From Paraspadella gotoi (lineage: Eukaryota; Animalia; Chaetognatha): a stretch of 64,000 nucleotides of DNA. The notes under the pieces were generated by a model, which was not told the origin of the DNA, did not search any database, and saw nothing but the letters and a program-made list of their open reading frames with translations. Shown here in pieces: positions 3,001-51,559 of this stretch. The stretch lies in contig CM119264.1 of NCBI GenBank assembly GCA_051294375.1, positions 11,135,832-11,199,831 on the forward strand, read 5' to 3'. Made by a program: the position numbers and the translations under genes. Every line of letters starts with the position of its first letter. Within the stretch, counting starts at the first letter, position 1.

Positions 3001-6000
3001 TTTTTAAAATATTTGTAAATTGGTGGCGGTATATTCCCACCACTTCATCTCCCAACCTACGTCAGTCAATCCCAGTGGGTCAGCACTATCGCAACCGTTT
3101 GTCCTATTCACAGTCCTAACAACTTCCCGCTCCCCGGTCTGAAGCCCCCAGAGCACCACAGGCAACTCGGCTGTTGCTATAGTCTAAAGTTTACGAATCT
3201 AACCTGTGATACTCTCCAAGAGCGAGGGTAACGTAAACAAACATGACTAGATAAGAGATGACAATGGTTGTAACATCTCCCATACTTTCGCGGTCAATTT
3301 CATCTTGTATAGATCTCTCGGAAGTAAAAGCCAAAGTGAAGTTTTCAGAGTGCATCGAGTAGTTCTTGAGAAAGTCTATATATGCCTTTTCCCAGGCAAG
3401 TGCCGGACCCAAGTTCTGCGTAAAATGTTACTAATGAAATTGGTACAACCAATGTTATTTTAGTCATATGAAACCGTAGTTAAAAAGGCAAATTCCACAT
3501 GAATGAAGTATGAATCTCTTATTAAAATATTGTAATCCAATCAGAATATCTACCTTGGGGTCCAAACTGTTGTTGATGACAAAAATAAAATTAAGCATCT
3601 TCGCTTGGGTATAATTATCAGCATGGTAGTCGCCGACAGCCAAATATGGTGCAACTGGCGCTCCAAATTCTCCCAAACAGCTCGTTTCCATGTACGGAGT
3701 AGATATCTAAAAGAATTTAAATAAATGCAAGAAGCAAGACAACGAATGGACGATCATTTTATGTTTTCTACAATATGTCATCTATTTCAATTCTTAAACA
3801 GTTGTTAAACTTAAAGTCATAAACAACTCAAACTCAAATTTTTTTACCTGAGTGGGTCCATTAAAACACGAATATATTTGGAACAGGTAATTAGCTATTT
3901 CCAAACCAAAATCAGGATCTTTGGCAACTTTTTTGAACGTTGTACGATTATTCTGATGAAAATCATAAATTATATACAAGAGCGAAATTACTGGAACATT
4001 GTCATTGCACGATTAAAGCCAAACCTGGAAATATTGAAAAACAGATTGTACAGCACATTTATCATTATCCGGCGATAGTGGTTTAAAACATATGTCGTTC
4101 AACTTGACTGTCGAATTATTAAATTTCGCAGAGAGATCATTAATGATGAAATTTTGCAGGGACAAAGCCTCTAGCATTATGGATTTGTCGAACGCCGGTC
4201 CAAATTTAGTGTTTTCGGTACCTAAAACAGTGGAATTGTAATCAAATATTTTTCATAACATGACTTTTTTATTCTCTGTAATAAAAACTATTATACTATG
4301 CTAAAACTTTTTAATTATTTTTTGCGGTTTTAACATTATATAACATATTTTACAAATATTTATTATTTTTGATGGCGAATCCGAATCTGTTCTTAAAAAT
4401 TCAAAAAAATAATTTTGTATAATCATTGTGTTATGCTAAAAGAATTTTTTTTAGGAATTGAATTAAGTTAATTATATAAGAGTGGGGCTTAGGTAACTCA
4501 TTTAGTATTAAGAATCTATCTCTTACAATTACATGTACAAAAACAGCATAAAAATAATATTTAATCGCTCAATGTCATCAATATCAACGCTCCACCCTAT
4601 TGCACACTGCATAGTTGAGATGAAAATATTTGGTTTTTATCTTCAACCTTTTTAAATTCTTCTCAGATTTTTTAGATTAAGATTTTTGGACCGAATCTTT
4701 GTGTCTTTATCTCAGTGTCTTTATTACTGCGTTTGATAATGTTAAAAAATTTCTTTAGTAATTCAATATAACATAGAAAATATATCGAAATAGCTGGGAA
4801 AAAAGTTATCTTTATTAAGAAGTTAATAAACCGATATATATTTTCAATCCAGTCTTTATCTTTTTATAAAAATCAAGAACATATTTACTCGGGTATATAG
4901 CGTATCCAAATTCTTTAAATTTCGTATAATTTGGCATGATCATCATTTGGGCTGTCCGATAGAAAGGACCAAAATTTTTGTCAAAATAATCCTTCTCTTC
5001 GCGCGCTTGTGAGGTCGGAGAAGACCATAAATCGACGGGATCCGTGATTACTTGATAAAAATATATTCCACAAGACCCGACTAAGCAGACTAAAACCTAA
5101 ACATCAGATATTTACAAATCAATTTTTTTATTAAAATTTATCAGTAAATAAAATCTTGTATTCTTTATACTATCAGATGTGGCTGAAACAGTGCAAAATA
5201 TTCAGTTGTTAGTCATTTGTGAAAACATTCCTACTACCGACTGACAGGCAGTTCGACAATAACCTACCGAACATCCATAATTTGCTCGGAAAAATAGAGT
5301 ACTTACGCTGCAAGTTATGACCAAGTAGGGATGTCTTGCCACAAAAATTCCCCAATAAGTAAATGAGTCGGTTATTGCGTCTTCCATAAGAGACGCGAAA
5401 CGACCAAAGCAATTATCCACAGGAAGGTTCTCATACGTTCCCACATGAGACGCCTTGTCCTCTTCTGGTCCACTGACAAGCTGCTCTCCACTTTCACCGC
5501 CTGTAAATAAACAAGTTTGAGCAAACAATGTCGGATCTGCCCACGATCGTTAGCGCTAATTAATTAATTTATTAATTAATTCAAGTTAAGCAATTAATTA
5601 ATTTTAATTAATTTATTAATTAATTCAAGTTAATTAAGCAATTAATTAATTTGATCCGAAATGTTTGTTTTTAAGTCTTTTCGTCACTGACCACAACAAA
5701 AGCAATAACGATGGCGACGACGACAATAATGCCGATTAAATAATTAATTGATAAATAAATTGATTGAATAATTAATTAATAGATAAATTGATTTATTGAA
5801 TAATAAAATGATTGTTTAATGTTTATTTGACTGATTAATTAATTATTGATTAATTAACAGATTAATTAATACTTCTTGCATTTACAATTAATATAAAAAA
5901 AAGAAGCATAATCAATTAGTGAAACAGGTTTTTTGTTTTTTCCATTTAAACTTTTTCCACTCAAATGATTCCATCAAAACTAAATTTCAAGCTTAATCAC

Positions 6001-9000
6001 ATACTTTCCTACCCACATAAAAAAATTCAAATCAATTGCCCTATCCACTCATGAGTAATTGAAATAATTTTTTTGGTTTTTTTACATTTAAACTAATTTC
6101 CACTCGCACGATTCCATCGAAACTTCATATCCAGCTCAATCCCCCACTTCCCTACCCACACACAAAATTTCATTTCAATCCATCCATCCAATCACAAGTA
6201 ATTGGAGTCTTTTGCTAAGGGGGTAAGAACGGATGGACATTTATTTTTTTGCATAATTTTTCATAATTGATGTTCTGACATAATATAAATGAATGCCTGA
6301 CAAGATTGAGGGGGCGGACCGACGGACCGACAAAGTGAATTATAGAGTCGGGATCTGCTGTAAGCATATCTGACTAGAAATATGTTATGGAATTTTATGA
6401 AATTGGTACAACCAATATAAAAATTATCCATTCATTTAATAAATAAGCTAACTTGCCACTGACTTTGGACAGGATTTATATTATCACCTCTCATTTTTAA
6501 ATTGCATACCTACAACCACAACATCACTAGAGACGAGAAACAAGATCGGTTCATCCAATGTATTCCGCCGGAATGACTATTTTATGTGTATTTCTCGTAA
6601 CTTGACAGGGCGTAACATGACGCTACATAACATGACTAATTGACTACAATAACTTTATTTGTATTTTAACTGTATTTATGTCACGCACTGCATAGGAGTT
6701 CCGTCTTTTATTCTTTATACTTATAGTTTTAGGATTTTTTGAAGATTTGAGGTTTTTTTCTGTTTTAACAAATGAGCAACTGTAGTGGTAGTATTTCATA
6801 CCCCACTACTCGTCCGAGAATCAGCAGCACCTATGGCGCCGGAGGTAGCACGAGCTCCTGCCAACCCAAACGACTCTGGTTCGCGCCCTGCTGATTCACA
6901 CATGTAAAAGCGGGACGGGGCGTCTAACCCACCTGTAGTGTCGGACTACAGCCCGATCCGAAGTTCGGGACCTTGTGTGCAACGGACGGTAAACTGCTCG
7001 CGGCATCGTCTTCCACATTGGTGAGCCCACACGAACACGCTGGCACGTTAATACACCTCTGCCCGGGCATGTTAACACACCTCTGCCCTCGACCATCGTG
7101 TGTGAAGACGGGAGCAGGAATAGGCAGCCCCTCCTAGAGTGCTCGGGCACAACGCGTGCATCATAGCCATCACACTTGCGCGGGTGTGTGATGCCTAGGG
7201 GGGGATGTGTAGTGGTAGTATTTCATACCCCACTACTCGTCCGAGAATCAGCAGCACCTATGTGCATTTACCGACTGACAGACCCAAAGGTGGTTTATAG
7301 ACGATAGAGTTGCTCCGCGAGTACAAGTACAAATTATTACTTTGTGGCAAGTAAAATCATTCTCGATCTGAACCTCGTCCCGTTTACTTGCCACAACTTA
7401 ATTTAGAAGGCGATATTGCAGCAAGAAATGAAATATGTTTTATTCAGTAACAAATCGCGTCGTAAGTTCGAAAAATAATTGAGCAAACCAAATTATTCTT
7501 TAACCCGTCATACCCAATTAGCTAAGTCCAAATTCCTCAATACAATTTTAATACTAACGCGAGTTGTTTCAAAATAAGTAGCAAGAATTAATTGCGTACC
7601 AGGACAGCAGAATACTTCTGAAAACGTATCGTGTTTGTATATGAAGGAATGGCATACTGTGGCGCCCCAGAATATCATAAAAAAAAGTCCAAAGATGGAA
7701 GCCATGATGAGCGACATACAATCGATTCCAAAGATGGTGCAAGGAACGGGAGGTGGAACCGGTGGGACTGGGGCTCCGCAAGATGCCTCGCAATCCTATG
7801 ATTTTTGGTAGATTGTAACTCTGTACAGTGTACAGTGTACATTGCATAATTTGGATATTTTTACCTGACAAGAACATGCTGCAGAGTCGTTTGTCATTGG
7901 AACATCACAAGAATAGGACGTTAGATTAAAAGCACTGGGATAAAGTTTGACATGTTTTAATCCAAAAGTGAATTTTGCCGGGTGAACTGTCACTTTCACC
8001 TGTCGGGATAAAAAAAAATGGATGAAGAGTGAATACAGAGAGTCCTGTCTACACTACAGTCAGGTACAAAAACATCGCGCCACTTTATTTCAGGCTTTAA
8101 AAATCACCCTATCTATTTGAAATTTTTTTTAAATTTAAAAGTAAATTAAATTTTATTAAAAAATGATAAGTTTAATATAAATTTTATTAAAATCGGGCCG
8201 TTTAGGAGCAGAATTTTTTTTAAATAAAATACTTTATCACAAACCTGAATATGAAAAAAATTTGATAGATTTAAGATAAATATTTTTTTAGATATTTAAC
8301 TTTTTTTGTAATACATTTTAAAAAATAACATTCGGAGGGATAACTGGATAACTTGATTACCCCAGATCCTTAAATATAAAAATTATTTTTTATATAATTT
8401 TTAAAGTTTAAAGTGGCGCGTTTTTTTTTCTGCACATGAGTGTAAACGATTACCAAAGCATAGTAAGTAATACTAAGTATATATCATGATCATTTGACGC
8501 AAACATTGGATAATTTTGAAAACTAACCAGTGCATCGATAGGAGAGGCCCCATTGCTCTTACTGCCCATAAATGATAACAATTTTTGAGCAGTGCACGTT
8601 TTTGCGTCACTTCCAGTACCGCAAAATAATCCAATCGCTTTCTGATTATTGGAAGGATACTGAACGTCTTTGCATGAATTAAAGAAGTCGTCGGCCGTAT
8701 CGTTTGAAACGACTGTTTGAATACTTTCAACTTTGTCACCTGATGGAATTACAGACTATTTATTAAGATTGTTAGGACTTCCAATCATATTTAATAAGAC
8801 TTAATTTTACATTCACCGATTGGGGTTAGGGAGGATTAAGTGTTCAGGGCGATTTAGGTTTAAGGATGGTTACGGGTGGTTTGAAGTCTTTTTAAAATAA
8901 TAATATTCTTAAACTACTCATAAGATATAGCGAATATCCCAGTCGGCGTATGTAAAACTTTGCCCAGAGAAATTTTTGAGGAACGTTTTCAAAGGGGCTT

Positions 9001-9566
9001 TTACTGTCCGGAAGCTTCTTGAGAAGACTTTGCGGAGATCTTTTATGTTTAGATTTTTCTCGCATTACAGTTAAGGTTACTGACACAGAGTTAAGTGTAT
9101 GTAAATTCGTCTCGATAAGTTTTTATTAATTGTAGCTGAAGTGACTAGTACTATAATTATTCTGATCAAATTTACCTTGATGATCTTTTATCGCCATAAA
9201 ATCGGATTGATTTGGGGCGCAAGTTTGAAAACAAAAATATCTCTGAAAATTCGCAAGACAGGCTGGGCACCGTCGGAGGTTGTTTTGAGCTATTTGAAAA
9301 TTGGTTTGTAAGGCTATTATCTGTTCGGTATCGCAGCATAACTTGGGTTGTGGGTCATCTGTTTCAAAAAGTCCGTAGCACAGTTCTTTTAAAATGTTAA
9401 GGCCAGTTTCGTTAAGCAAAGGGCGGGGATCTCCCGAATATACACAAGGAACCGGGAGAATCCCATCGGGTAATTTTCCACAGTTTCCATACCACCGACA
9501 TTTTCCCTCAGCACTTGAGAATATGAGAATTAGAAGAAGAGGCGTAAGAAATGTTTTCACATCCAT
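30..9566 (-). CDS. NPC1: Niemann-Pick C1-like sterol transporter, 5' portion (multi-exon, continues past window start)
   Basis: First exon MDVKTFL... has a signal peptide and a Cys-rich NPC1 N-terminal domain ([34 protein letters not shown]). Later exons read [15 protein letters not shown], the luminal loop ([59 protein letters not shown]), the sterol-sensing domain ([32 protein letters not shown]) and exon 30-210 ([11 protein letters not shown]...[23 protein letters not shown]). GT-AG boundaries are seen. Confidence 0.95.
2421..2490 (-). repeat. Dispersed ~95-bp repeat family C, partial reverse copy
   Basis: Reverse complement of GATAGCTTATTTATTAAATGAATGGATAATTTTTATATTGGTTGT, also found at 17173, 19538 and 31938. 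Confidence 0.85.
2603..2812 (+). mobile_element. tRNA-headed structured repeat family A, copy 1 (small internal deletions)
   Basis: Highly similar by eye to 28455-28689 and 17009-17172. Contains CTCCCAA, a GGTTCTAGCCC B-box-like motif and the hairpins GTAACA/TGTTAC and CCTGA/TCAGG. Confidence 0.8.
5509..6380 (-). mobile_element. Helentron-associated (HINE/DINE-1-like) element, family D
   Basis: On the minus strand: T-rich start, a stem-loop containing GCAGATCCCGAC, a GTCGGTCCGTC microsatellite, an AATT-rich middle, a second GCAGATCCGAC subterminal repeat and a short terminal palindrome GTTTGCTCAAAC followed by TTGTT. Related copies at 21109-22131 and 37200-38035. Confidence 0.7.
6396..6474 (-). 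repeat. Dispersed repeat family C (reverse copy)
   Basis: Reverse complement of the 17173-17269 repeat. Confidence 0.85.
6530..7330 (-). mobile_element. HINE-like family B element interrupted by the TRIM at 6781-7262
   Basis: Shares TTTGAGGTTTTTTCTGT..TAACAAATGAGCAAC and GACAGAC...AGAGTTGCTCCGCGAGTAC with copies at 19125-19719, 26990-27163 and 28890-29113. Confidence 0.65.
6781..7262 (+). mobile_element. Miniature LTR retrotransposon (TRIM) with a tRNA-like Pol III promoter in the LTR; 3' LTR truncated
   Basis: Identical 55-bp direct repeat at 6781-6835 and 7208-7262 starting TGTAG. Candidate LTR end ...CCACA at 7017, followed by T and TGGTGAGCCC (PBS-like, 7019). PPT AGGGGGGGA at 7197-7205 just before the second repeat. 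A-box-like TGGCGCCGGAGG (6834) and B-box-like GGTTCGCGCCC (6878). No coding capacity. Confidence 0.75.
8057..8442. mobile_element. Tc1/mariner-type MITE
   Basis: Imperfect TIRs CAGTCAGGTACAAAAACATCGCGCCACTTT and AAAGTGGCGCGTTTTTTTTTCTGCACATGAGTG, with TA on both sides. Confidence 0.7.
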
Positions 9567-11099
9567 GATCCAATATTGAAGTTTGAACTTGTAGTTTAAC
9601 TTGAATCGGTATTTTTAGATTCAATCATTTTAACGATGGTGTTTCCAGAGCCAGGACTCGGGGTTTTCCCAATCGAAATACATAATTTTATTATGTACCC
9701 TAAAGATAATTGTAATAATAAAAGAAGTCTAAATAAGGTAAAGATTGGGTATAATTAAATAACGGCAAAACATACTTGTAAAAAAAAAATATCACAAATA
9801 AAGGAACAAAAGAAATTAAAAATTGACATTGGTTAAACAAAGCAAACCACATTTAGAAATTATTCGCAATTAAAATACACCAATATCAAATCTAAAACAT
9901 TGATAAGAATTAAGTAATAAGTAAATAACGCTAAAAGTCAAGTTTATTAAAAAAAATCAGATTAAAAATTCTAAGAAAAATTTCTCAAAAAATCATACTC
10001 ATTCTTTAATTGTTCTTACAATCAGTGGACTCTCGTCTTGTGACTAGTGCCGGCAAATGTGGGAGCTAAAGATTAAAGTTCAAAATTTGGGCAAAACTTA
10101 CGGATACCATCTGTCGAATGGAACCTTAATATTCTTGGTTTCAACAAGTATTAACTCTATTAATTTTAGCCAAATATCTTAAAAAATACTTAAATATTTA
10201 TTTTTGGAAATAAGTTAAATCTACTAATACGTATTAGGTTAATCCAACTAAATAAGATAAATTTATTTATCCCGTTTTTGAATATTACACCAAAATTTGA
10301 AATCAATTTAACGTGATTTAATTCTCAATGAGGGCGAAGTTCAAACGACCTTGAACCAGGTTTGATAAAAAAATTCTCAAAAACGAAACAAGTATTTTAA
10401 CAAAAATACTATTTAGAAGAGTCAATTTTTAAGAATTTGTATATTTTTAAAATTTATACCGAAAGAAATCGATACCGCTTAGTTACCGCTAGTAACTATT
10501 ACTGTCTCATCTAGTCATGGTCCTGAGGATTGGAGGGACATTATCATTCCATCAGACAACCATACGAAGAGTTAATCATATCTTCTTTTTAGTAAGTTCA
10601 ATAAAATTTTCAATACATACAATTACAGATATTTAAAAAAAAACAACTTTTAAGTGGTTTTTCAAAAGCCGTCAAAACCGCGGTCGACGAAAGTAAAATT
10701 TGGCCAAAGATTATTTAAATCCAACCGAAATCACGAAATATCACAGAATGTCATAAAAAACACCAAGAATCACAAAAAAAAGGAGTTTACGTCACAATCT
10801 AAGTGCAAATGATAAATGTTCTTGTTGGTTTTTTGTTCTGAAAAGAGAACGATAGGACGAAAGGCACAGAAAACTGAACGACAAAAATTTAAATTGTATT
10901 AACTAATAATACGTATAATAAGAAAAAATGCTGATTAACAAAGCTGAATGATTCCCCTGGGTCAGGGGGGGGGGTTAGGGTTGGTTTGCCTTGTTTTCCG
11001 GACGGGTCCCCGTACCATTATTATATTATTACAGAACGTATTCCCCAGTTTGAAGAGCCTCCACCAGCCATTATAACCGGAGTTGAATACGCTCTGGAG

Positions 11100-11960
11100 G
11101 CTTATGGGAAAACGAAGAGAAAGAAGAGGAAAAAATAAAGTTCGTTTCTTTACAGAAAAGAAAATTTAAGACCGTAACAATGATATTAAAACGTTTTTAA
11201 GCTTCACGAACTAAGGATTTATTTTCAATTCTTTAAAAAATGTTTTTTAAATATTAATAATTGTAATATTTTTTTTTCTTTGCCTTTGATAAATATTTAC
11301 AAAATAACAGTTTTTATTTGTGATAACCACGATCATTTAATAATTCGGATATGTTTTGGTTATTGTTTTTTGAACCTTCATCAGCCAGTTTTAAAAATTT
11401 TAATAAATATTTGGATACTAACTTTAAAAGATAGAGAGAGGCAATTTTAACCTTGATATCTCTCTCTCTCTCCGAATTATTAAATGATCATTGTAATCAT
11501 AAATGAAAACTCTGTTACTTTGTAAATATTATTATTATATTTTTTTATAAATTTATTAATATTTAAATATTTTTTGAAAAGTAAAATTTAAAAAGCCAAA
11601 CTTAGCCCTAACCCAAACTAACCTCTACCCCTAACTTACCTCTACCCCTAACTTACCCCTAAACCTAACTTACCCCTAACTTATTTTTAACCCTAACTTA
11701 TTTTTCTAGTTAACTTACACTTATTCTTAATTTATTCTTAACCATAATTTATTGTAACCTTAATTTTTACCCAAATATATATTGGTTGTACCAATTTCAT
11801 ATAACAAAAATAAAAAATATTAAAAGAAAAATTATGATATCTGAATTGCTTTATTTTTTTTCCCGAAACGTTATCCTCTTCGACTTCGTTTCATTTCGTT
11901 CTTCTTTTTTCCGTTAATTCTTTAAGAAAAACCTTGCTATTCGTTTTCCCAATAAATTAT
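11100..11960. mobile_element. Foldback/MITE-like element with degenerate CCCTAA/CCTAA-like tract
   Basis: 11290-11349 is the approximate reverse complement of 11471-11530. TATGGGAAAACGAA (~11103) is mirrored by TTCGTTTTCCCAATA (~11940). TAACCC/CCTAAC-like units lie at 11600-11770. Confidence 0.55.
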
Positions 11961-13477
11961 TAATTATTAAGAAATGTAATCCACTGACTAAAATGTAAAA
12001 AAATTCGCGTAGTAAGAAACTCAGGGTGACAAAAGTTCAGAATTAAGGATTGATATACAATTTACAATGCACAGCATACACAGATTTTATTTTTTTTTCT
12101 GTAAAGGAAAGGAGAAAAACAACATTCGAGCCATTGGCTGTTGTCAAAGGTTAAACGAGAAAAAGCATACACAGACGAAGATTTATTAATTTTTTCCTGA
12201 CCGAACGGAAGGAAAGCAGTTGATCATCAATGACGAATTCGGAAAGGACGATGCGGGCTTAGCTAAATTTCAACTGAAACGATTATCGGTCGTCATCTAA
12301 ATACATTTTACATATGATTACGACGATTATTCGATTAGTCATAAGAGGATGCGGTCATTCGAACGAGGCTACGCAGTGTCGTTTTGTTTTACATAACTCA
12401 ATATCTGTTGAATTGAGTTGCCGACTGCCGAGTCGGTCCAACAATGAGAGAAACAAAAACGAAACGCATTCTACAGATTCTACGCATTCTACAGTAACAG
12501 ACTACACAAAAGGAAAATTGAATTAAAAATTTATTATAAGTAATTAACGTTGAAAATAATATTAATAATAATAATATTAAAATTATAATGGACCGAGATC
12601 GAAATAGGTTACATGCATATTACAAAATCGTTTTGATTCTCCTATGCCATTTATTTTAACAGGCTAAGTCCTTTAAGTTTAATCTTTTAAATATGCAGAA
12701 CTAGACAGTAGAAATTCAATGTTATTGGATTTATTAGCTTTTCACAATGAACTATCATATTCATGCTAATACTTAAACTAGCTTACTATAAAGTAAATTC
12801 ATTGTCAATCCCGTTTCTTTTATTAAAATTATTAAAAAAATTGATAACTTTTCAGATTTAGTAGACTGAATGAGTTTTTGACTGGTTATAATAACACTTA
12901 TGTGTTTCGTGACGATATCGAACTTAAAGAAGGGAACTTGTATATATTGAGTCCTAAAGCCAGCCAACGTTCTAGCAGCTCTCTTTTTCGACATTTCTTA
13001 TTTCTTTTTTCGTAGATATATCAAAGAAAAGGTCTTCATTAGGCGGTCTGGAATAATCAAAGAAAAGTTTGGATTACTTGCATAATATGACTTCTTAACA
13101 AGAATGATGTCTAATATCTAATTGTAAAATTAGGGCAGAAAGTAACTTTTAACTTTGTGTTGTATAGATGCTCCCTCTATTTCCAGAAGACAACACTAAC
13201 ATCCCTCTCCCATTACATTATAAAAGAATATACTTTATATAAAGAATATAATTAAATCTATTTTTAAATTTTAATATGAAATTTTAAAGTCTAATATAGC
13301 AAAACAAATAATCTTTTAATTTTTCATAGTCTGCATTCTAATTTAGTTGGTATAGGTTCCTTAAAAAAAATTCTGATAATCATAATGCAAAATTTTTTTC
13401 CAATAGTAACAAATACTTCGTTAATTAATTTACGCATTTTATGCCTTTTTTTACAGTTTGTAATACAGTCTGTAATA

Positions 13478-14430
13478 CAGAGTGTCTCAAGCGTAGTGTC
13501 ACTTTACAAATGAATCCAGTGAATCAGTACAATTAGAAAAAATATATTTATTTTACCCGTTGGATCCAGAAGTTCTTACAGTTTTATATGATGATTTTAT
13601 TTTTAAAATCAAACTATTATTTCACATTTTATCAGCACTCAAAGCAAATGCTGGAATTTTTTTTAATCAATTTTAAAATATTCAAATCTTTCCAACAACC
13701 AAAAAAAATTTTTTTCAGCTACTTGGTTAAATATTAAGAATTAATAATATGTTGTCTTGGCATAATGATGATCATATGTCTTTCCTTACATATTTTTACC
13801 ATACTCCTTTCGGATTTGAGAGTATTTAATTGGTACAAAATGAGAGAATGTACCGGATATGCAGATGGTTTGATACAGCCATTGGCAATGCATATAAGAT
13901 ACAGTCAGTGGAGAAATAGTTTTAGCAGTAAAAAATACTTTATGAATCTCAGATTATATGCTGAATCATAGCATATTAAATTTACAGCTTTTATCTGTTT
14001 CCTGAAACTAAATTTAATGAGCGTCCATTAAAACAAATTTTCCTTAAAATCATTCTTTGCATCTTCACCTCTGAAATCATTATCATTATCGTCAATCTTC
14101 CCAATTTAAAAAATTCTTAAGAAAAGGCACAACAAATAATGTAGCCTACTGTAGCCTAATGTAACATGCACAATCATTTTTTTAAATAAAAGCAGGAAAA
14201 CTCTAAAAATTTAATAACAACTAAATTTTTTGATGGATTGTCGAAAAAAAAAATCTCCCTGATTTGAACCGCGCATTGTGTCAATAAAAATACAAATAAA
14301 TAAGATAATAAAGATACCAGAAAAAACTGTATGAACTTCTCTTTTCGGTAGTTCTTTCAAATTAATAATTCACCTTACCAATTTGACACAGCGTTCATTT
14401 GTAAAGTGACAGTATGCTTGAGACACTCTG
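13478..14430. mobile_element. Tc1/mariner-type MITE (953 bp)
   Basis: ~37-bp TIRs CAGAGTGTCTCAAGC.TA.TGTCACTTTACAAATGAA at both ends, with TA at 13476-13477 and 14431-14432. Confidence 0.85.
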
Positions 14431-14433
14431 TAC

Positions 14434-16700
14434 CTTGGAAAATCTTCAAGTAGTTGGAGGTCAGTTAATTTCAACTTGGAATATTCATATTCCAATAATA
14501 TTCTTTCGATCACCGCTTTGCTATCAACACAGACTTGTTCTTCCGTACCTGAAATAATGATTTATATTCATCGACATCACAGCATCATAATTTGCAGCGA
14601 AAAAAAATTGAAGTAGTCCCATTTGTAATAAATATTATCGTATGAAATAATTTAATATTACTAAGCGCGTACCAATAAACCATAAACAATTATCTGTAAA
14701 GCTTCTTGAAGTCTTCCCGATCCCGTTCCCATCGCGTTGATCGAAAGTAGATTTTCCATCCCTAAGTTTAGAAACCAACTACGTAACTAATACGGCATTG
14801 AATTTACTGCTCATTGGAATCTCTCTTTTTATATTTGACCCTTGGCCTTGTTTCTCTCTTCCTCCGATATCTGTTTTCGATCGTTTCTTCTCGACGTTTT
14901 CTTGATTCTCCCGGAATTTATTTTGGTTGATGGCTTCTGGATTGACTCGAACGCGTTCGCTCGATCTTGGAGGCTCGTTGGTGTTTCCGCAAAAATATTC
15001 TCGGTTTTCGTTTTTCATATTCGTCTTCTTCCTTTCATTTAATTCTTCTGACCGTCTGTCACCGCTTTTAGGGGGTTTCCAACGCTCGAAAGACGCTTTA
15101 TGAGCAGAAACCCGTCTATGTTCAGTTTCTGATGATGTGTCACTTTTCTGCTTTGCGTCACCGACTTTTTCGTGTTTTGAGAATAGATTTGATCTTGGCC
15201 GTTGACCTGAAAATTGTTTTACTGGGTTATGATGAAAAGCCTCCTGGTGATTTTCTTGTTTTTTTTCTATAGGTCTGAAATGGTTCAGTTTCAGCTGTTC
15301 CTTCTGAGTCGAATTTCCATTTTCCACGTTTTTCACAAATGGATGATTTAGTTTTGCCTTTCCCGACTCAAAAAATTTAGAATTTTCCACTGGCTTGTCC
15401 TTCTCTGAATTTTCCCTCTGAAAAGATTTGGACAAATTTGACTTCTCCAGCTTTCTCTCAAACGATGCAAAAAAGCTCTGCGCATCCCCATCCTTCCCCG
15501 GTGGATATTGCCGCGTTTGGCGTTTTCTATCAAAAGTGAACGAATGCTTTAAATCGTCCGCTTCCCCGCTTCCTTTAATATCCCCGGGCGAAAATGATTT
15601 AGAATTGAGTGATTGCTTAAAAGGAGAATGTTGAAATTTTGATTTGGATAAAATTTTAAATGTAGGTCGAGTGTCCTTAGCTGAGTTTGAGCTAACGTCG
15701 TCGCTTTTGAAATGTTTGAATCTAGTTGTTTTATTGATGTCTTCATGGTTAAGTCTTTGATCGCAATTGCTATCTCCACGTCCCATGAATATGTTGGCTG
15801 ATTTTCCGTCTACGAACTGTTGGCTGAAGTTTTTCAGTCGTTGAGCTGACTGGTCGGAAGTTTGCAAGATTTTCTCGGGTCTTTTTTCTTCGCGCTCATA
15901 CGAAAAACACCACTTGTCGCTACTTTCATTTTCTAAATTTTCTATGGATCTTTTCAGACGAGACACGACTTTTGATCGGTTGTAAAACAGCTGGAAGTAC
16001 ATAAATTTAAACTAAATCAAAATGCTATGATGGAATCATTAGTAGAAGACTTTTGAAATTGATTTCAAACGTCTTCTACTAATTTAAAACACAACGAAAC
16101 GAAAGGAAATTCACGATGCCTAAGATGGAATCATTGAAAATTAAATCAAGACTATCAAGTACCTGGTTTTTCCAATCAGTGTTAACGAGTATATAAAAAA
16201 TTTCCCTGTATGTTTTTTTCGTTTTGAGGATTGCATAACGGATTAACAGCGATGTAACATCGTCCTTTACCCTGTGAAAGATACAGTTTTTACCCAATTA
16301 ACCCTATATTTTAAGCTCTATTTATCGTAACCGATTTTTGAAATGCTTTTTTCATAATGTTGTTGACCTTTTGTCTGCTGTTTAAGGACAAAGATAAATT
16401 AATACTTCTTCAATTATTCTTAACAATAACTCGAATATTTTTATTTTCTTTTGTCATCTCCCGTTTTGACCCTATACTTTCAGTCATACAATTCAAGACA
16501 ACAGTTTATACATCTCAACTAATGATAATTTTATCTTTGAGATAATCCTTTAAGCTTAAGTTATTACGTTAATTTGTTCTCCGTTTGGTCTCCCTTCGTC
16601 AGTTCGCTTCGGGAAGTATCCGGCGGAAATGTTTTTTTCACACTGACTCGTAAATTATGTTGCTGTGGATCTAACTTTCCCTGCGATTGTGCTGAAAATG
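14434..16700 (-). CDS. Hypothetical multi-exon protein, K/S/E/R-rich and probably disordered; ends undefined
   Basis: A 407-codon open frame at 14779-16002 in AT-rich DNA, plus spliceable open exons near 16570-16690 (QSQGKLDPQQHNLRVSVKKTFPPDTSRSEL) and 14434-14548 (GTEEQVCVDSKAVIERILLEYEYSKLKLTDLQLLEDFP). No recognisable domain. Confidence 0.55.
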
Positions 16701-17008
16701 ACAACAATTATGAAAGTCTCTTTAAATATTAATGAAAGAGAAAGTTTACAAAAAATTACTGTGCTCAGCTCTTATGGATTATCTCTTTTGTGTTCTTTCT
16801 GCTTTTGGTTATTTTACCGATTGCCGTTGGATACGACCGTTTCTTTTCTCAGTGCCGTAAAAGCACACTGAACTAACGTTTCTTCTCCCAAACTTATGGT
16901 CCCTGTTTCTAGCCATGGTGGGACCGGTTTTTTTTTTACAATATGAAAAAGTCTGCAATAAAAGTCTTTTGTCCTTTTACCACAAAATTGACTTATGATG
17001 TTAGATTT

Positions 17009-17290
17009 ATCAGCGGCCATTGGTGCCGGAGGCAAGTCATTTGCCTCCCAACCCAAAGGTCCCGGGTTCTCGCCCGGTGGTCGCCTAGCAGTTAGGAGGG
17101 ACGGGGCGCTTAACCCTCCTGTAACATGGTGTTACAACTTGATCCGCTTATATTGAACGGTTCTGTCACTAAGGCCTTAAACCACCAAAGCCTGTCCAAA
17201 GTCAGGGACAAGATAGCTTATTTATTAAATGAATGGATAATTTTTATATTGGTTGTACCAATTTCATAACAATAATTATTGTCTCTTCAG
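17009..17290 (+). mobile_element. Family A copy 2 with family C repeat embedded near its 3' end
   Basis: GCGGCCATTGGTGCCGGAGG...CCGGGTTCTCGCCCGGTGGTCGC tRNA-like head and hairpin body to 17172. Family C occupies 17173-17269, then the family A tail ATAATTATTGTCTCTTCA follows. Confidence 0.8.
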
Positions 17291-18185: not shown

Positions 18186-19124
18186 GGTTACACACTTGAG
18201 CTATTTTCAATGTTAAAACAGCATGACGACGACGACACCGACGACGACAACGACGACAATGGTCAAAAGAAGCAGAAACGAATTAATATCTCGCCCGGCT
18301 GACGAGATAAAAAACGCTGACTTCTTTCCGAATAATTTTCTTCTAGGAGTAGCCACAAACGCACCCATACTTTTAACTAAAGAATTTTTATGATAATCAT
18401 AGATGTATTCCAGTTATAGAGCTTGTCGTCTCAGAAATTATTGATGTGTGCTACTGTAGGAACAATTATTTTAAACTACTTACTTAAAAGTCAGAAAATT
18501 GTTAACTTGAATGAAATTGAAAAAAAAACCAGGCCGACTTGCCCCTGACTTTGGGCAGGCTTCCATCCCTCTTACAATAAATCAGCTTATTTGTAACCTT
18601 CCGTAGGTAGTTTATGACGAGAAAATTTCGTATGATATCGTTTTCCTGGAAATCTCAAATCGCCAAACCGCACTTTTCGTCGCCACTTTTCGTTCCCATT
18701 GCTAAAAAACATTGATATGGGGAATGGGGATTGGACAATGGACAATGGACATATGAAACCTAGCCAAATAAATTCGCGTTAATAAAATTTACATTATTAG
18801 TTCATAGTTTATTCAGAGGACGATACTTATTCATAGGTAACAATCGGCTCAATGGTGGTGATTTAAGAGGGACGGGACATCGAACCAAACTAGTATAGTG
18901 AGACTAACATTCTACACGCAGTTTTTTGTCGAAGTTCTACCTCGTTGGTAGGCGTCCTGAAGAATTGTATACGCCTGCGAGAGAAGTCCTTAGTGTTCGG
19001 ACAGATTTAATCATTAATGACAGCTAAAAATCTTCATGGCTACCCTAATTGGATTCTAAAGCTCTAATAAGATTTCCTTAGACCATTTTTTACGATTTTA
19101 ATTTTAAAAATTAAAAAACGGTTA

Positions 19125-19719
19125 CAACAGAAACAAGAAATTCAAATGTTATGTTGCGCCGCAGTGACTTTGTTATCCTGTGTATTTCCGTGTATTTTCG
19201 ACACTCCTGACAGATAAAAGATTTTATTCCAATGCAGTACAGGAGTCCTGTACTGCATTGGAATAAAATCTTTTATTTTATATAGTTTAAATGAGATTTC
19301 TTTAGAAAACATAAGGCGGCGCTAGTAGTCGCTTAGATTTGAGGTTTATTCCTGTCTTAACAAATGAGCAACCAACTACAGCCTATAGGGTAGTTATGAC
19401 AAACTTTCCTGTGGGTTAACTATTGTGGCCCATGGTCCTCGGACTCGCTGAATGAATAAATACAAATACAAATATGAGCATCTTTAACACAAAGCTTGCA
19501 GGGACCTGCTATGTCATTATCTTGTAAGAGTGATGGAGGCCTTAAACCACCAAAGCCTGTCCAAAGTCAGGGGCAAGATAGCTTATTTATTAAATGAATG
19601 GATAATTTTTGTATTGGTTGTACCAATTTCATAAGTATGACAGACCGACAAACTGACCGACAGACCGACCTAAAAGTGACTTTCACAGTTGCTCCGCGAT
19701 TACTTTCGGCACAACTAAA
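19125..19719 (-). mobile_element. HINE-like family B element containing a family C copy (19538-19634)
   Basis: Subterminal inverted repeats GTTGCGCCGC (~19153) and CGGCACAAC (~19707), a GACAGACCGAC microsatellite and a terminal stem-loop AGTTGCTCCG...CGGCACAACT. Confidence 0.65.
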
Positions 19720-26154: not shown

Positions 26155-27475
26155 ATTAATATTATTTTTATATATAATAATTATTATTATTATTAACAAT
26201 TATTAACAATTATTTTCAGGGAGTACTCAGCGTGAAAAAAACGAATCTGGATCCAGTTTACGTATTCATTCAACCGCCGAGTTTGACAGAACTTGTGAGT
26301 TGATGAAAATTCTGGAGATAAGCGTAAAGCAGATACATAAATGAGGCTGAAATATTCTATTCATTTTTATCAATTTTGTTTTTTTTTTTCGCTATGATTC
26401 CTTGAAATTCAGATGAAACATGTCGATTGTCCAGATAATAATCGGTTGAGCATTCGCTCCGCCGACTAAGGGTTTTTTTTTAAAATCTCGCAAACAAGCG
26501 GATGGAACGAGCGTGAATAAAAAAAAAGTGATTATAAACACATGATTAACGTTTTCTCTCAAACGACAGAAAAGTCGGCTGGAGAATCGAAATACTGAAA
26601 CAGCAGAATCACTGGCTCAGAGGATGCGACTCGCCGAGAGGGAAATGGAATTCGGTAGTATTTGTTTGTGAGAGTTGTCGTGTCGTGTGGCGAGGGGGTA
26701 AATATTTTGGCGAAAGAATTAGCCGGATTGCTAGAATGGAATGGAATGGAAATATGGAAATATATAAAAAAAGATGGAAAAAGAGATTTTTTTCAAAAAA
26801 ATGTTTAGAAAGTTAGAAAAACAGATTGAAGAAAAAAAAAAGATTTTTAAAACGAAAGACGATTTTAAAGGCAACTTTTCTCCGCTCATTGTAGACTCTG
26901 TAGACAATGTAGAGTGAGCCAAAGAGAAACTAAATAAGTAAATAACATACCGCAAAATAGTAAGTAGGAAATAGTTTAGCAGTCTCTTAAATTTGAGGTT
27001 TTTTCTGTCTTAACAAATTAGCAACCAACTCTAGGCAAATTATATGTATTTTTAATATAAGTGGGACAAACCGACGGACAGACATACCGACGGACCGACC
27101 GACAGACCGACCGAAAAGTGACTTATAGAGTTGCTCCGCCAGTACTCGCGGCGCAACTAAAAACCTTGTTTAGTCTCGAAAGGTTTTCCTTTACGCGTTT
27201 TAGAGATAATCGTTTTCTGAAAAGCCATACAGAGCGTTCGTGAGAATGGCCGAGGTTTATTCTCTCATTGGACGAAACAATGACGAAGAAGCCCCTTAAT
27301 TATTTGTCTTTTTCGATTAATTTTGAGCGCCGATTAAACCTGTTAACTTGTTTATTGTTTTAATTTAGGCGAACGCAAAGACAATTTTCACTTTCGTATC
27401 GTGAACGATAATTTGGAAACATCGATAAAGGAATTGGAAAAAATCGTGAGAAATATCATCGAATCAGCTTCTTAG
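24915..27475 (+). CDS. GUK1: Guanylate kinase (5 exons)
   Basis: RPLVVCGPSGSGKSTL P-loop, VSHTSRQPRPGETDGVDYHF, EFVESAQFSGNLYGTS, ICVLDIDSQGV, VFIQPPSLTEL, RLENRNTETAESLAQR and IVNDNLE. Exons at about 24915-25060, 25822-26014, 26220-26294, 26570-26654 and 27369-27475. Confidence 0.95.
26990..27163 (-). mobile_element. HINE-like family B terminal portion in a GUK1 intron
   Basis: GACAGACCGACC microsatellite followed by the hairpin AGTTGCTCCGC-CAGTACTC-GCGGCGCAACT and AAAAA. Confidence 0.65.
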
Positions 27476-28454: not shown

Positions 28455-28689
28455 TATGGTGGACTAAAATCCACTAACCGTTCATCAGCGGCCATTGGTC
28501 CCAGAGACAAGTCATTCACCTCCCAACCCAAAGGTCCGGGGTTCCAGCCCGGTGGTCGCGTAGCAGTTAAGAGGGACGGGGCTCTTAACCCTCCTGTAAC
28601 ACGGTGTTACAGCCTGATCCGAAGCTCAGGGACTGCTTATATTGAACGGTTCTGTCACTAACACATAACAATAGTTATTGTCTCTTCAT
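28455..28689 (+). mobile_element. Family A copy 3 (most complete): tRNA-Gly-like 72-nt head plus multi-hairpin body
   Basis: Acceptor-like stem GCGGCCA (28488-28494) with TGGTCGC (28553-28559), T-arm CCGGG..CCCGG and anticodon-loop-like CTCCCAA. The anticodon stem is broken, so this is not a functional tRNA. Confidence 0.8.
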
Positions 28690-28889: not shown

Positions 28890-29113
28890 TAACAAGAAAA
28901 AAAAAAACAAGGAACGGCTATTCCAAGGTGTTGCGCCTCATTACTTTTTGATTTTTAACAAATGAGCAACAAAATATAGGCTAGTTAAAAGCGTTTTTAA
29001 CATAAATGGGACAGACCGATGGACAGACATACCGAAGGACCGACCGACGGGCCGACCGACCGAAAAGTGACCGACCGAAGAGTTGCTCCGCGAGTACTCG
29101 CGGCGCAACTAAT
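28890..29113 (-). mobile_element. Short HINE-like family B element
   Basis: GTTGCGCC (~28930) and GCGGCGCAAC (~29100) subterminal repeats, a GACCGAC microsatellite and the hairpin CGCGAGTACTCGCG. Confidence 0.65.
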
Positions 29114-29826
29114 AACCCTCCATACTTTCGTTCCTTCACAAATCTTTATTTCATTTTCAAAGCGACGTCGATGACACTTTTGCTGGGTTCTTCTTCGGAT
29201 GTGAAGACATTAATCTTTAAAGTACTTGAAAAAAGATTGGATTTCGAGATGGGATTATTTTTTTTTCTGGGTTCCGTCGAAGTTTTTTATTCACGAACTC
29301 GAACCGGTTGTAACCAGTTAAACCAAGTGTCTCGAGAGAGAGAGATGGGCGAAGAGAAAAATAGATGGATAGAATAATCGAGGGACCGATCAAGACTCGC
29401 CGAATCTAGAAAACATATGTACTAACTGCTAAGTAATTTCAAGGAATCATTCAATTTCGAAAAAGATCCCGTGAGACAAATTCACTGGCACAAAACAAAT
29501 CATTGCCATGGTTTACTGTAGTGAGAAAAACATAATCTGTTTTTTTAATAAAGGTTTTTTTTCTGTACAAATTTCATTTAAGTTGATTCACATTAATAAC
29601 TTAAAATCAATTTTTTTGCAACAATTTCAAAATCGTTAAATTGATTGCTCATCGCATAGAGATCAAGAGAAATGAATCAGTTTTAATTCAGTATCAAAGA
29701 TTACTGTAAAAATATATTGGACTGATTTATGTGTTATATGGTATAGTCAAATTCTCTTATTATAAATTTTTACTTCGTGTCAGCGGATTTGGCACACAGA
29801 GTAAGTGAAAATAACTATCACTTTCC

Positions 29827-30384: not shown

Positions 30385-33300
30385 ATGCTGTTTCAACAAT
30401 TTTCTCACATTTTCAAGCATGGGACTCGATATTTTTATTCGTGGAGAATTGTGTCCTCTGGTAACCTTAAATGTTTACCAAACGACAACAAAACTACCAA
30501 GTACATTCATTCCGGTAAGCCTCCTGAGTCTGAGACATAAACAGAAGGATGAATAATGTCTTTTGAGTAAATACAGAAGGCTTCATATTGTAAAATGTGG
30601 TACCCCTTTTTTGTGACCAGAACACGTTCCGAGAAAAAAACTATTGAAGAGATTTAATGAAATTTTGCATGCGGAGTACCAGAAGTGATACAAATGGAAC
30701 TATCATGGCGAACTTTTACATTCCACCCATAAGCTGAGATAAGGGGGCCTGAGTGCCACAAATGGTCAAAAATTGTTTTCAAATTTTTTAATTATTTTTG
30801 TTTTAAACAGTTGCACAGACTTTACTCTTCCACAAAAACGTATTTATTACCTCAAAAATATTCATTTACCTTAATTTTTAGCTTCGTGAACATCAGCAGT
30901 TAAAGTCAGATTTGGAATAATTTGGGAAAATTGGAAGTAAAACGATGAACCATGCATCTTCAACCATGCTTAATTATTGCAAGTTTATTAATTTTAGTTC
31001 TAAAATGTTTTTTTCTTTATGTTTAAAACGTCAATGCACCTGATGCTACTAAAAAAATAAAAATAAAAATTTTAGCATTTTTTGGCACCCCAGGGGTCCA
31101 CCCCCAGGGCCCTGTACTACATTTTATAATATGAAGCCTTCTGTATACGTATCAATACAATAATATCATTTAAATAATGACATACAAAATATTTAAAAAG
31201 GACAATAAATAACTCTATTTGATATTTCAGAAAATAGAATCGGAGTTAAAAGACTGCTATGCCTAAATTCCAAAATGTGAATTTTAAATTCTAAAAAGTT
31301 AAAGTTATAATGCATTGTCGGTCGCAAGATGAAAGAATTCCATTAAGACCTAGCATCAAATTCACAGATTCCACGAGTTTTCACATGTAAATTTTTTAAG
31401 CAGATAACGAAACGACCAGGACCGACTTTGCCCTCACCAAAGTTTACCCACTCGCTCAGTCAAAGACGTTTGACCTGGAATTGGTCAACTTAAATCGAGT
31501 TTATGAACAAAAGTCGACGTCCGAATTGGTGCGCGCTCTCTTCGTCCTGCGAGTTTGCGCGGTAGATTGGATTGCCGATAACAGGTAACTTTAACTGGAG
31601 TTTGAAATCTTGGGATGTCCTCATATCCGTCATTAGTAAATTCATTAAATTTGTTTCTGGGCGTAATACGTATTTCTGTCGCAGGTCATACTTATTTAAA
31701 TCTCTTTTGTTACGCACTTACGGTTCATCTTTTGTTACAGTTTTGCCCTGATGTCTCTTTCTCGGCGCATTTTACCTAATTTTGCCTTTCGCGCCGTCTT
31801 TGGTCCGACTCTTTATCGTCAGTTCGTCGCCGGAGACAGCTTGTCGGAAATCCAAGCGACTACCAACAGATTAGAGGGAGCAGGGATACAGCCTATGGTG
31901 GCAGTGTCTATTGAAGTAAGTAGATGAAAGAAAAACATTAAACCACGAAAGCCTGTCCAAAGTCAGGGGCAAGATAGCTTATTTATTAAATGAATGGATA
32001 ATTTTTATATTGGTTGTACCAATTTCATTAAAACAATTAAAAAAAAAAAATTCGTTGATAGGACGACTACAAGTGCTCACTATCCCCCGCCGGATACCAG
32101 AATCTGTAAGAAAACAAATAATGACTTGACTTAGTTCAATGTTCCTTGAGCGTTCAACTTTTTGTATCGAAATTTTACTGGACAGTTATGAAAAGAATTT
32201 GTCAAAAATATTGGAATGCGTCGCGATAACTTCTGGAGTCTCGACGGAGGGAAAGGGAACGATGCAAGTCAAAGTAACCGCACTAGTTCCCAACTATTTA
32301 CTTCATACAATTACCGACATACTGCGTTCGGAAGATGTAGATCAGTGGCTGGCTCGGCTTTCTGGTACGTAAGAGTGTCAGTTAGTTAGAAATTACAATC
32401 AAATAATAAAAATACAATTATTATATTTTTATGCATTTGTATTCCGCGTTTATTCTTCGTATCGCCTTTTGTCATTGTGAGGGAATACTCTATATTTTTA
32501 AACTTTGCTAGAAGAATCTTCCGAGAACTTTTCTCTACTCTTTCCCGAAATCTCCCGCGAGGAAACGACGCAATTAGTCGACGGGTTGAATCGCCTGGAC
32601 GTCGTCGCCGCAGCAGCCGCGTCGGCGTGCGTCAGAGTTCTCATCGATGCGGAATACGTTGACCAAAATATCGCAATTGCTTTTCTCTCTTTATTCTTCA
32701 TGAAGAAGTACAACAGGTATGGAGCGCATTCTAAAGTAACAGGGAATTGAAAAGTTCTCTATTTTTCTCCATCCTACAATTCAATCGCAGAAATCACGCT
32801 ATAATTTGGAACACATACCAGTGCTACCTGAAGGAATCGAAAGAAAGATTGAGGCGGGATCTTTTCATCGCCGACCGGTTGCACTTTTGTCACGGAGCCA
32901 AAATTGTGAGAGGGGCATACATGGAAAAGGAACGATATTTAGCGAAAAAACGGGGAAATCCATCTCCGGTTTGGGAGACGAAGGAACAAACGGACCGGTG
33001 CTATGATGAGGTGAACGACAGCTTCTTAATGTTTTCAGGATTTCAGGTTTTCAGGTGTTTTCCTCGGGTTTTCAGGTTTTATTGTACTGTTAGCTTATAG
33101 ATTACACTCATAACGCAAATAATAGCTCGTTTTTCTCGACCGAATTATCCGGTTATAAAGACCTGTAGTCAACAGGGTTCGTGTCGTTCCTTTATTTCTG
33201 AACCTTATTAATTTAGATTTTCATAGAAAATAGTCAAAATTAAGAAATTTTCTTTGAATTTCAGACTATATCTTTTCTGTGTTCTCGCGCCCATTCCCGT

Positions 33301-50443: not shown

Positions 50444-51011
50444 CTGAACACATTGCTTCAGTCGCCAGAAAATCACAGAGGCTGGAGTTTTTCGATGGTG
50501 AGGACGACGACGACGACGACGATGACGACGACGAGGTCGATTCACTCTCCATTGTCTCTAAGCAGCTCACGTTTCCGCTGTTCGGACGAGACGGCGACGG
50601 CGTTGTCGGTGACGGCGACAGCGACGGCGTCTCCTGACGACCGAATTCGAGTCGCGGAGACTTTGGCGAAACCGTGCATGGAATTCCCGGGCTAGAGCGT
50701 CTGATGCTGGATGTCGAACGCGAGTGGAAACAATTTGGTCGGCGAGGGGAGAAAGAGAACTTCGGCGTTGGAGTTGGTGATGGAACTTCCATTTCCGCAC
50801 TTGCGCTTCCCTTTTCAAATGTGGGTCCGATTTTGTGTTCGGACTCGGTTACTCTCTGCGTCTCTTTGTCGAAATTGTCCATTTCAGGCGCCTGAGTNNN
50901 NNNNNNNNNNNNNNNNNNNNNNTGACGCCAGTCGTCGAGAGGGCAGGTGCTGTTGAGATGCGGTTGGGACGTGTGTGTTGTTGGTCCGTTGGAGGTTGGT
51001 GTGTTGAACAT
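50444..51011 (-). CDS. Ser/Pro-rich exon, probably the N-terminal coding exon of the MAP3K13 gene
   Basis: Long open frame (MDNFDKETQRV...SPSPTTPSPSRP) ending at a CAG|GTAAT donor, on the same strand as and upstream of the kinase exons. Linking exons are probably in the N gaps. Confidence 0.45.
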
Positions 51012-51426
51012 TTGCCAAAATATTTAACTTTTTGACTTCGTGTTGTGGTTCGATGAAGAACAGAGAAGGGTCTTCAAAACTTTGACGCGAGACCATTTGG
51101 CGAAAAACGAGAGAGAGACAAAACTTAGAACCATCAGCGGGACGGCCGAGAGCGACTGCGTTAAGACTTTGGAATGGGACTGACATACATCGTCGTGGTG
51201 TCTTCGTGGAAATTGCGTTCGACGTCGCCTCGCCATATATTGTTTTTTTTTTTTGAGAGATAACAAAAACTTTTAAAAACACATTTTTTTCCAACGCCGC
51301 TTTAGTACTCAGCGTTCACAAAAAAAAAGTTAGAAGAAAGGAAAGGAGAAAGGAGAAGAAATGAGAGAAAGAGGAGAAAGAAAGAAAGAAAGGAGAAAAG
51401 AAAGGAAAAGAAAGAAAAAGAAGGAG

Positions 51427-51458
<32 letters not shown>

Positions 51459-51519
51459 AGAGAGACGAGAGGAAGATAGAGAAGAAGAGGGAGAGAGAGA
51501 GAGGGAGATAGAGAAGAGA

Positions 51520-51559
<40 letters not shown>

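Follow-up and report, generated by a model that had tools for sequence, protein, structure and literature searches.

A non-coding LTR retroelement of Paraspadella gotoi with a tRNA-like segment and a predicted type-P5 twister ribozyme in its LTR

The window analysed here is a stretch of 64,000 nucleotides from the chaetognath Paraspadella gotoi (assembly GCA_051294375.1, contig CM119264.1, positions 11,135,832 to 11,199,831), and coordinates below count from its first letter and refer to the forward strand unless a minus strand is given. Between 6781 and 7262 lies what is almost certainly a multi-copy, protein-less animal retroelement with long terminal repeats (LTRs), of the type called a terminal-repeat retrotransposon in miniature (TRIM). 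Its LTR joins a decayed segment resembling a transfer RNA (tRNA) to a predicted twister ribozyme of the permuted type P5, and the element may be copied by way of a self-cut RNA circle.

Layout, ends and copies of the element

The 5' LTR (6781-7017, 237 bp, TG...CA), which defines what we call family A, opens with a hairpin (6782-6809) that is also present in a sister family, B, and is followed by a non-coding internal region of 190 bp (7018-7207) and by a 3' LTR stub (7208-7262) that holds the first 55 of the 237 bp. The resulting direct repeat (6781-6835 and 7208-7262) is 100% identical over its 55 bp (self-BLAST of the window, E 2e-21). The LTR end CCACA closes at 7017 and is followed by a single T and then by TGGTGAGCCC from 7019, where a site like a primer binding site (PBS; 7019-7028) begins, and a polypurine tract (AGGGGGGGA, 7197-7205) ends two bases upstream of 7208. 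A sequence-only reading of the window had already pointed out the 55-bp repeat, the purine tract, the CCACA end, the motif at 7019 and the interior of about 190 bp without coding sequence, and all of them were recovered where it had placed them. The arrangement of two LTRs with a PBS behind the 5' LTR and a polypurine tract ahead of the 3' LTR is that of Helenus (TRIMp3) elements, and the full length, rebuilt as 237+190+237 bp, comes to 664 bp. The longest ATG-started frames within 6781-7262 encode 24 amino acids on the plus strand and 66 on the minus strand, and a 23-bp tandem duplication (91%; 7042-7064 and 7066-7088) lies just 3' of the PBS. In a by-eye comparison with the primers printed in Fig. 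S2 of the available part of PMC10886601, the PBS matched tRNA-Trp best, at 9 of 10 positions. A half-molecule of tRNA-iMet, as used by fungal Helenus, was also tried as primer; it has only 8 bases in common with the PBS and a primer with a 3'-CCA was preferred.

Nine public runs, all from a single organism, contain the stretch, and evidence from further copies came from the contigs of four of them, aligned to 6500-7600. Contig depth in X1, which is not equal to copy number and may be inflated over the LTR by related families, was 11.6 in the unique flank, 555-855 in the internal region and 6,248-17,153 in the LTR; the profiles of X5 and X3 had the same shape, and LTR depth was high in all four runs. 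Directly past 7017, unrelated loose ends were carried by at least 14 (X1), 18 (X5) and 24 (X3) contigs, and ahead of 6781 by at least 8 contigs (X1), these figures being taken from the 24 of 588 rows listed. The LTR boundaries at 6781 and 7017 exceed chance. Contigs bridge the LTR to the internal region (6843-7111, 6891-7125) and the internal region to a second LTR (6961-7261, 6972-7261, 6988-7244), and three of the four runs contain joints from 7179 back to 6787 whose shorter side measures 67-73 letters, which shows that in other copies the second LTR extends beyond 55 bp. The view that this is an animal TRIM family with a tRNA-like segment in a 237-bp LTR, shortened at the 3' LTR of the window copy, is thereby borne out: the family is multi-copy with sharp ends, other copies end at 7017 and have a longer second LTR, and the sister family shows target site duplications (TSDs) of 4 bp, so that none of the outcomes named beforehand as contrary to that view was seen. 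The accompanying suggestion of a young insertion is only loosely supported, as 55 identical bases say little and the window LTR departs from what most of the family carries at about 4 of 237 fixed sites.

A sister family of solo LTRs

Apparent solo LTRs of family B lie at 28455-28688 (234 bp, TA...CA, TSD TTTG), at 40120-40244 on the minus strand (with an internal deletion, TSD TAGA and the canonical GC at T2, a pseudoknot of the ribozyme described below), at 2603-2812 (with deletions and without a TSD, AACT/TGTT) and at 17008-17289 (with a nested repeat at about 17172-17269 and a possible TSD GATT if the 5' end was deleted right after TA). Two of the three copies having both ends show a 4-bp TSD (chance 0.0084 each), as animal Helenus elements do. 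Aligned end to end, the LTRs of families A and B share 148 identities in 252 columns (about 59%), with a score of 156 compared to 54+/-10 and a maximum of 90 in 300 shuffles. Family B opens with TA, not TG, and neither an internal region nor a PBS was seen for it in the window copies or in contigs of the public runs. It is far commoner than family A, with about one copy per 15 kb of window and a contig depth of 2-5 x 10^5 in X1 (10^5-10^6 overall), and its ends are sharp (28455 in 50, 68 and 27 contigs; 28688 in 70, 122, 43 and 9 contigs).

The repeat nested in the LTR at 17008 is one of a short family, 90-98% alike, with copies at 2416-2491, 6391-6477, 17172-17269, 19537-19634, 31938-32039 and 35049-35090.

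A predicted type-P5 twister ribozyme at 6898-6978

The sequence-only reading was incomplete in missing a twister-like part of the LTR at 6898-6978, which alters the likely mechanism of copying and carries most of the novelty. Published twister blocks run UAA, P2, GC, P3, P4, a loop UCCCAAGC, P4', GUAAA, P2' and GAGGG (Schistosoma mansoni, Table 1 in the available part of PMC8501958). The blocks at 6904-6969 read GUAAAA, GCGG, GACGG, a short loop, UAA, CCC, AC, a P3 hairpin, P4, a loop UCCGAAGU and P4', with P5 closing the whole, which is the order expected of a chain opened at P5 and thus points to a type-P5 permutation, one of the three that are known for twisters. The model places P5 at 6898-6904/6972-6978, P2 at 6910, 6912 and 6913/6928-6930, the catalytic GA at 6914-6915, UAA at 6925-6927, P3 at 6933-6951 and P4 at 6952-6956/6965-6969 around loop L4 (6957-6964), with the pseudoknots T1 at 6916-6918/6958-6960 and T2 at 6931-6932/6963-6964. 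From twister chemistry, self-cleavage would be expected between U6925 and A6926, with a spacing of 427 nt from cut to cut, and a predicted clamp helix (5' strand 6810-6816, 3' strand 6982-6988) would enclose the tRNA-like and ribozyme domains together.

T1 is CCG/CGG compared to CCC/GGG in the S. mansoni twisters, being swapped on both strands and the same in both families, while T2 is AC/GU in family A and GC/GC in family B, the latter as published. Each of the two departures of the family-A loop from the published loop has its counterpart on the opposite pairing strand. The UAA loop and the catalytic G followed by A are present, with no variant at the family-B equivalents. P4 has 5 bp and a closed apical pair, P3 7 bp and P5 5-7 bp, with two-sided changes among them, and all three helices appear in folds computed without pseudoknots. 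A descriptor of all helices and both pseudoknots, composed after the site had been seen and loosened to a 3-bp P2 with a bulge, matched only 6910-6969 in the 64 kb (both strands) and, even at its loosest setting, none of 515,807 dinucleotide shuffles of the LTR (both strands). It misses the family-B copies of the window, each of which has a break.

Across the five window copies of the two families, 95.1% of 81 cells are paired and 4 of 21 pairs show changes in both partners (two of these pairs belong to P3 and one each to P4 and T2), which was equalled by 2 of 500 shuffles, a figure that draws on only two related families and is not a probability; slid controls paired at 26-46%. P5 differs wholly in sequence between the families and keeps its pairing in both, as does the clamp helix (7 bp in A and 9 bp in two B copies), which shows one two-sided and one one-sided change among 6 predicted pairs. 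A mismatching T stands in T2 in two of the three window family-B copies that have letters there. At 28592 the contigs read G, as the model requires, in 98.7-99.8% of depth in all four runs (217,809 of 218,181 depth units in X1, 326,164 of 330,375 in X5, 32,768 of 32,859 in X9 and 8,882 of 8,949 in X4), so that family B as such carries the canonical GC/GC T2. The other variants within 28571-28630 fall only in the P1 and P3 loops (28602 being loop). Likewise the sole P5 mismatch of the window copy, at 6903, is an A closing P5 in 90-99% of depth, and the commonest core polymorphism of family A, at 6941, lies in the P3 loop. An alternative register, with a 4-bp P2 after UAAC and without T2, would leave family A with a mismatch and conflicts with the majority G at 28592.

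Published tests of twisters allow these departures to be placed. In a set of 1,948 natural type-P1 twisters, cleavage was not lowered where P1 or P2 was imperfect, but it was where a pseudoknot, the catalytic G or A, A2 or A6 of L4 was defective (PMC11662667, available part), and most T1 pairs tolerate replacement by a different pair (PMC5113685). The sensitive parts, that is the pseudoknots, the catalytic A and G and A6 of L4, are all intact at 6898-6978.

A weak profile match (E 0.14) to the GA-CGG part of the ribozyme was seen at 18863-18899, which may be what is left of a third and older family.

The tRNA-like segment and predicted Pol III promoter

Upstream of the ribozyme, 6818-6897 forms a decayed tRNA-like domain with a Gly-type anticodon (CCC/GCC), a 10-bp closing stem and a predicted promoter for RNA polymerase III (Pol III). 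The A-box-like motif (6834-6845), the B-box-like motif (6878-6888, carrying GGTTC) and the anticodon-loop-like CTGCCAA (6858-6864) are in place as the sequence-only reading had described them. The GCC anticodon read there is private to the window copy: position 6860 is C in 98-99.97% of contig depth in all four runs, giving the family a CCC anticodon as in the sister family. Both CCC and GCC are glycine anticodons, and the domain, which resembles a tRNA-Gly, may derive from one. The stem of 10 bp (6818-6827/6888-6897), taken at first to enclose the domain, is found in the minimum free energy fold (z -3.2; 2 of 200 shuffles as good); it is not a true acceptor stem because its 3' arm overlaps the T-arm strand.

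The likeness to a tRNA is itself limited. The A box is imperfect, deviating from TRGCY...YGG, and a relaxed A plus B motif arises in 218 of 20,000 shuffles. ARAGORN at default settings found no tRNA genes in the 64-kb window; for the family-A copy it gave a cloverleaf only at the 75% threshold, a poorer one (equalled by 23 of 2,000 shuffles), and at this threshold it also gave 5 matches in 2.8 kb of unrelated bacterial DNA, which makes low-threshold matches weak evidence. For family B, 17013-17085 gave a cloverleaf with a 7-bp acceptor stem at the 85% threshold (20 of 2,000 shuffles equal), and the copy at 28455 gave no tRNA down to 70%. These results are suggestive of a tRNA-like part that is real and decayed, the likeness of the family-A copy alone being weak (p about 0.01 in each test).

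Truncation of the window copy and its surroundings

The element sits in a host repeat whose left part (6743-6780) aligns to 26991-27025 and runs on as host sequence in at least 24, 48, 7 and 32 contigs, and whose right part is 7263-7324 (7270-7324 aligning to 27098-27145). Both flanks belong to one repeat, recurring at 26971-27165, 28945-29117 and 19323-19719, the last copy being interrupted by other insertions. The alignment of the left flank stops at 27025 and that of the right flank restarts at about 27098, leaving about 65-70 bp of host sequence missing between them, which indicates that these 65-70 bp disappeared along with the TSD and some 180 bp of LTR sequence; the 3' LTR of the window copy was probably shortened by this deletion. 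The junction 7262/7263 may instead be an assembly join: no contig crosses it among the 32 of 2,685 pieces listed. Contigs in X1 and X3 join 6818 and 7263 on opposite strands. In the host repeat a GACA/GACC microsatellite is flanked by the inverted pair GAGCAAC...GTTGCTC, and we take the repeat to resemble the Helentron-associated HINE/DINE-1 elements.

Animal exons in the window belong to NPC1, proline dehydrogenase, a Ras-family gene and MAP3K12/13. The N-terminal exon of NPC1 (9198-9566, minus strand) lies about 2 kb downstream, placing the element within or just beyond NPC1 on the opposite strand. Just upstream of the element is an AT-rich repeat of 600-650 bp (5735-6345, 73% like 37244-37904 on the minus strand) with an internal 142-bp duplication. 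An inverted duplicate of 1.4-1.6 kb, 76% alike (50661-52083 and 55129-56729), stands near assembly gaps and may be an assembly duplicate; the open reading frame within it had no Pfam match.

A proposed route of replication, and rival explanations

We propose, with a probability of about 55%, that this TRIM, with its decayed tRNA-like segment and predicted type-P5 twister in the LTR, is copied via a self-cut RNA circle of 427 nt. Pol III would start at about 6815-6825, directed by the A and B boxes, and would read through both ribozymes, as the 427-bp unit is without any run of four T. The twister in each LTR would then cut between U6925 and A6926 to release a unit-length RNA, from 6926 to 6925 of the next LTR (427 nt), which would have a 5'-OH and a 2',3'-cyclic phosphate but lack a terminal repeat; the two ends of this RNA would be held side by side by P5 and the clamp helix, and a host ligase or the ribozyme itself would close the circle. 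A Trp-like tRNA would prime reverse transcription by an autonomous Gypsy-type element, as is argued for animal Helenus in the available part of PMC10886601. Copying round the circle would involve no strand transfer and would give LTR-internal-LTR or LTR-only DNA, to be inserted by a Gypsy-type integrase with a 4-bp duplication; a later deletion would have taken from the copy at 6781 its TSD, some of the host repeat and about 180 bp of the 3' LTR. There is a precedent in the plant LTR retrozymes, in which a hammerhead in each LTR yields a linear RNA without an R repeat that becomes a circle, and reverse transcription round this circle has been proposed to yield solo LTRs, monomers or multimers (PMC4918200, available part).

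A number of observations weigh against this route. Cleavage, transcript and circle are all predictions, and the 427-nt circle folds no better than shuffles (z -0.9). The PBS carries one mismatch to the tRNA-Trp primer, the closest of the printed ones, no autonomous partner element was found, and no TSD was seen for family A, the right end of the window copy being deleted. Rfam gave no match to its tRNA model at E up to 10 and none to its twister model at E up to 10 in three scans (only chance matches). P2 has 3 bp and one bulged base in both families compared to the usual 4 bp, a strict descriptor with a 4-bp P2 found no match in the window, and the pairing probability of P2 in a pseudoknot-free circular fold is about 0.01; the after-the-fact descriptor and the two-family covariation described above belong here too. 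Family A has A-U at the equivalent of G13-C31 of the Osa-1-4 ribozyme, which is abolished by single changes of G13 (PMC5113685). Some family-A contigs, a minority, have another base in place of the catalytic A at 6926 (11% of depth in X9 and 0.5-1% in three runs) or at 6960 in T1 (0.1-4%, and 12% in X9), and these contigs may represent decayed copies. With these points taken into account, 6898-6978 very probably adopts a twister fold, judging from block order, shuffles, pair counts and family variants, and the predicted ribozyme is probably catalytically active; it is a twister-like variant and not a proven member of the twister class.

The lack of a run of four T may also be read in another way. 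The active twister might serve as a 3'-end cutter that stands in for a Pol III terminator, with cleavage in the 5' LTR being slow or blocked, leaving a linear RNA that would begin at about 6820, end at the 3' LTR's cut, carry some 105 nt of repeated sequence at either end and be copied by ordinary strand transfer. The two LTR copies may fold differently, given that Pol III is expected to start at or downstream of the clamp's 5' strand (6810-6816), and the RNA of Cassandra is linear with short terminal repeats (PMC10886601, available part). Against this, the ribozyme is downstream of the start in both LTRs and both should cut unless context matters, and we estimate that the absence of a T4 run from 427 bp is about a coin toss at the given T content; we consider this explanation unlikely. 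It is unlikely, too, that the element is an ordinary Helenus-type TRIM whose twister-shaped part no longer cuts, being a relic of a fragment of a short interspersed element (SINE) or RTE element, or a non-catalytic structure. The short P2, the lack of an Rfam match and the minority contigs with A6926C would suit such a relic, as would the occurrence of twisters at the 5' ends of RTE elements (PMC8501958) and the idea that Helenus arose from SINE insertion into an LTR (PMC10886601; both sources in their available parts). However, two families only about 59% alike retain all the sensitive residues and both pseudoknots, with two-sided changes, and the twisters of RTE elements are of type P1 whereas 6898-6978 is permuted.

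A last rival, the very case that the sequence-only reading had named as refuting, is a SINE with a tRNA head whose first 55 bp happen to have been duplicated locally. Family B does behave as a very high-copy short repeat that begins with TA rather than TG and shows no internal region. This reading is very improbable and is largely refuted by the contig evidence, as the internal region is multi-copy and bridged to the LTR on both sides in independent runs; moreover a PBS follows directly on the CA and a polypurine tract directly precedes the TG, the 3' end is fixed and without a tail, there are 4-bp TSDs, and 30-37 bp stand ahead of the tRNA-like part.

Comparison with known systems

Neither an LTR element carrying a twister nor a ribozyme-bearing TRIMp3 turned up in the literature covered, including the available parts of PMC7761336, PMC6765202, PMC5680766, PMC13570524, PMC10085705, PMC6154101, PMC9901934 and two preprints; Repbase/Dfam and most subscription journals lay outside the search. 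Rfam hammerhead gave no match in the element at E up to 10 in three scans. Scans of metagenomes for relatives gave 0 loci and, in another case, 2 loci that were chance motif matches in bacterial coding DNA without a profile match; three scans of viral contigs and a scan of prokaryote genomes gave none, and a phage BLAST with the tRNA-like part gave only matches of E about 8. Twisters have been reported at the 5' ends of RTE elements and in viroid-like circles. Those of the RTE-clade Perere-3 (Liu et al. 2021, PMC8501958, available part) share with ours the same blocks, a P3 starting with CUGUAG and a GUAAA-like L2; they are of type P1, with P1 taken from the target site and one per non-LTR element, whereas the family-A ribozyme is of type P5, lies inside an LTR, has a P2 one base short and a swapped T1.

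The element is a Helenus-like TRIM, very likely in a new variant that bears a twister-like ribozyme. It shares with Helenus (TRIMp3, Kojima 2024, PMC10886601) the TRIM layout, the size (664 bp, with Helenus at 311-1263), solo LTRs, a tRNA-like segment with a GGTTC B box and the 4-bp TSD of animal members; the 11-base B box of family A is identical to that of sturgeon Helenus-1_AcRu, and the PBS matches at 9 of 10 positions the tRNA-Trp site of Helenus-2_SyJa and Gypsy-32_NVi. It differs in that no ribozyme is reported for Helenus in the available part of that paper ('ribozyme' occurs 0 times in the supplement), and in that, among the published Helenus LTRs covered, the tRNA-like part is near the 3' end of the LTR, whereas family A has it in the 5' half, followed by about 120 bp of conserved structure. 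Five further motifs of the LTRs described here had 0 matches in the available Helenus supplement, where line breaks may hide some. According to the same source, Pol III transcription is unproven for Helenus itself, and Cassandra and Ajax likewise have a Pol III promoter inside a TRIM LTR, theirs being 5S-derived and without a ribozyme, with the linear RNA of Cassandra carrying 18-nt repeats.

With the plant LTR retrozymes (PMC4918200 and PMC7761336, available parts) the element shares a non-coding LTR-PBS-PPT layout (PPT, polypurine tract), the 4-bp TSD, solo LTRs and, if our prediction holds, one self-cleaving motif per LTR and a unit-length RNA without R (PMC4918200). The plant elements differ in having type III hammerheads, a tRNA-Met PBS, no tRNA-like promoter and plant hosts; family A has no hammerhead, and its PBS is nearest, among the printed primers, to tRNA-Trp and not tRNA-Met. 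According to the available part of a 2026 preprint (10.64898/2026.07.22.740005), LTR retrozymes are found mainly in plants, and twisters are mentioned 0 times. Tentatively, and with rather less assurance than we give the route itself, the element may be an animal LTR retrozyme in which a permuted twister takes the place of the hammerhead, alongside a tRNA-type Pol III promoter and a 427-nt circle, with the sister family having reached tens of thousands of copies as LTR-only products of reverse transcription on such a circle. If true, this would extend LTR retrozymes to animals and would put the twister among the most abundant functional RNAs of this genome. It would also explain how copying can work for a Pol III TRIM that lacks both terminator and R region, and would offer a testable role for the permuted twister, a class to which few functions have been assigned; and as the variant found here (short P2, swapped T1) escapes Rfam, similar elements may hide in other repeat libraries. 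The element as we read it would unite two strategies that have been described apart, the Pol III promoters in the LTRs of Cassandra and Helenus and the ribozymes in the LTRs of plant retrozymes.

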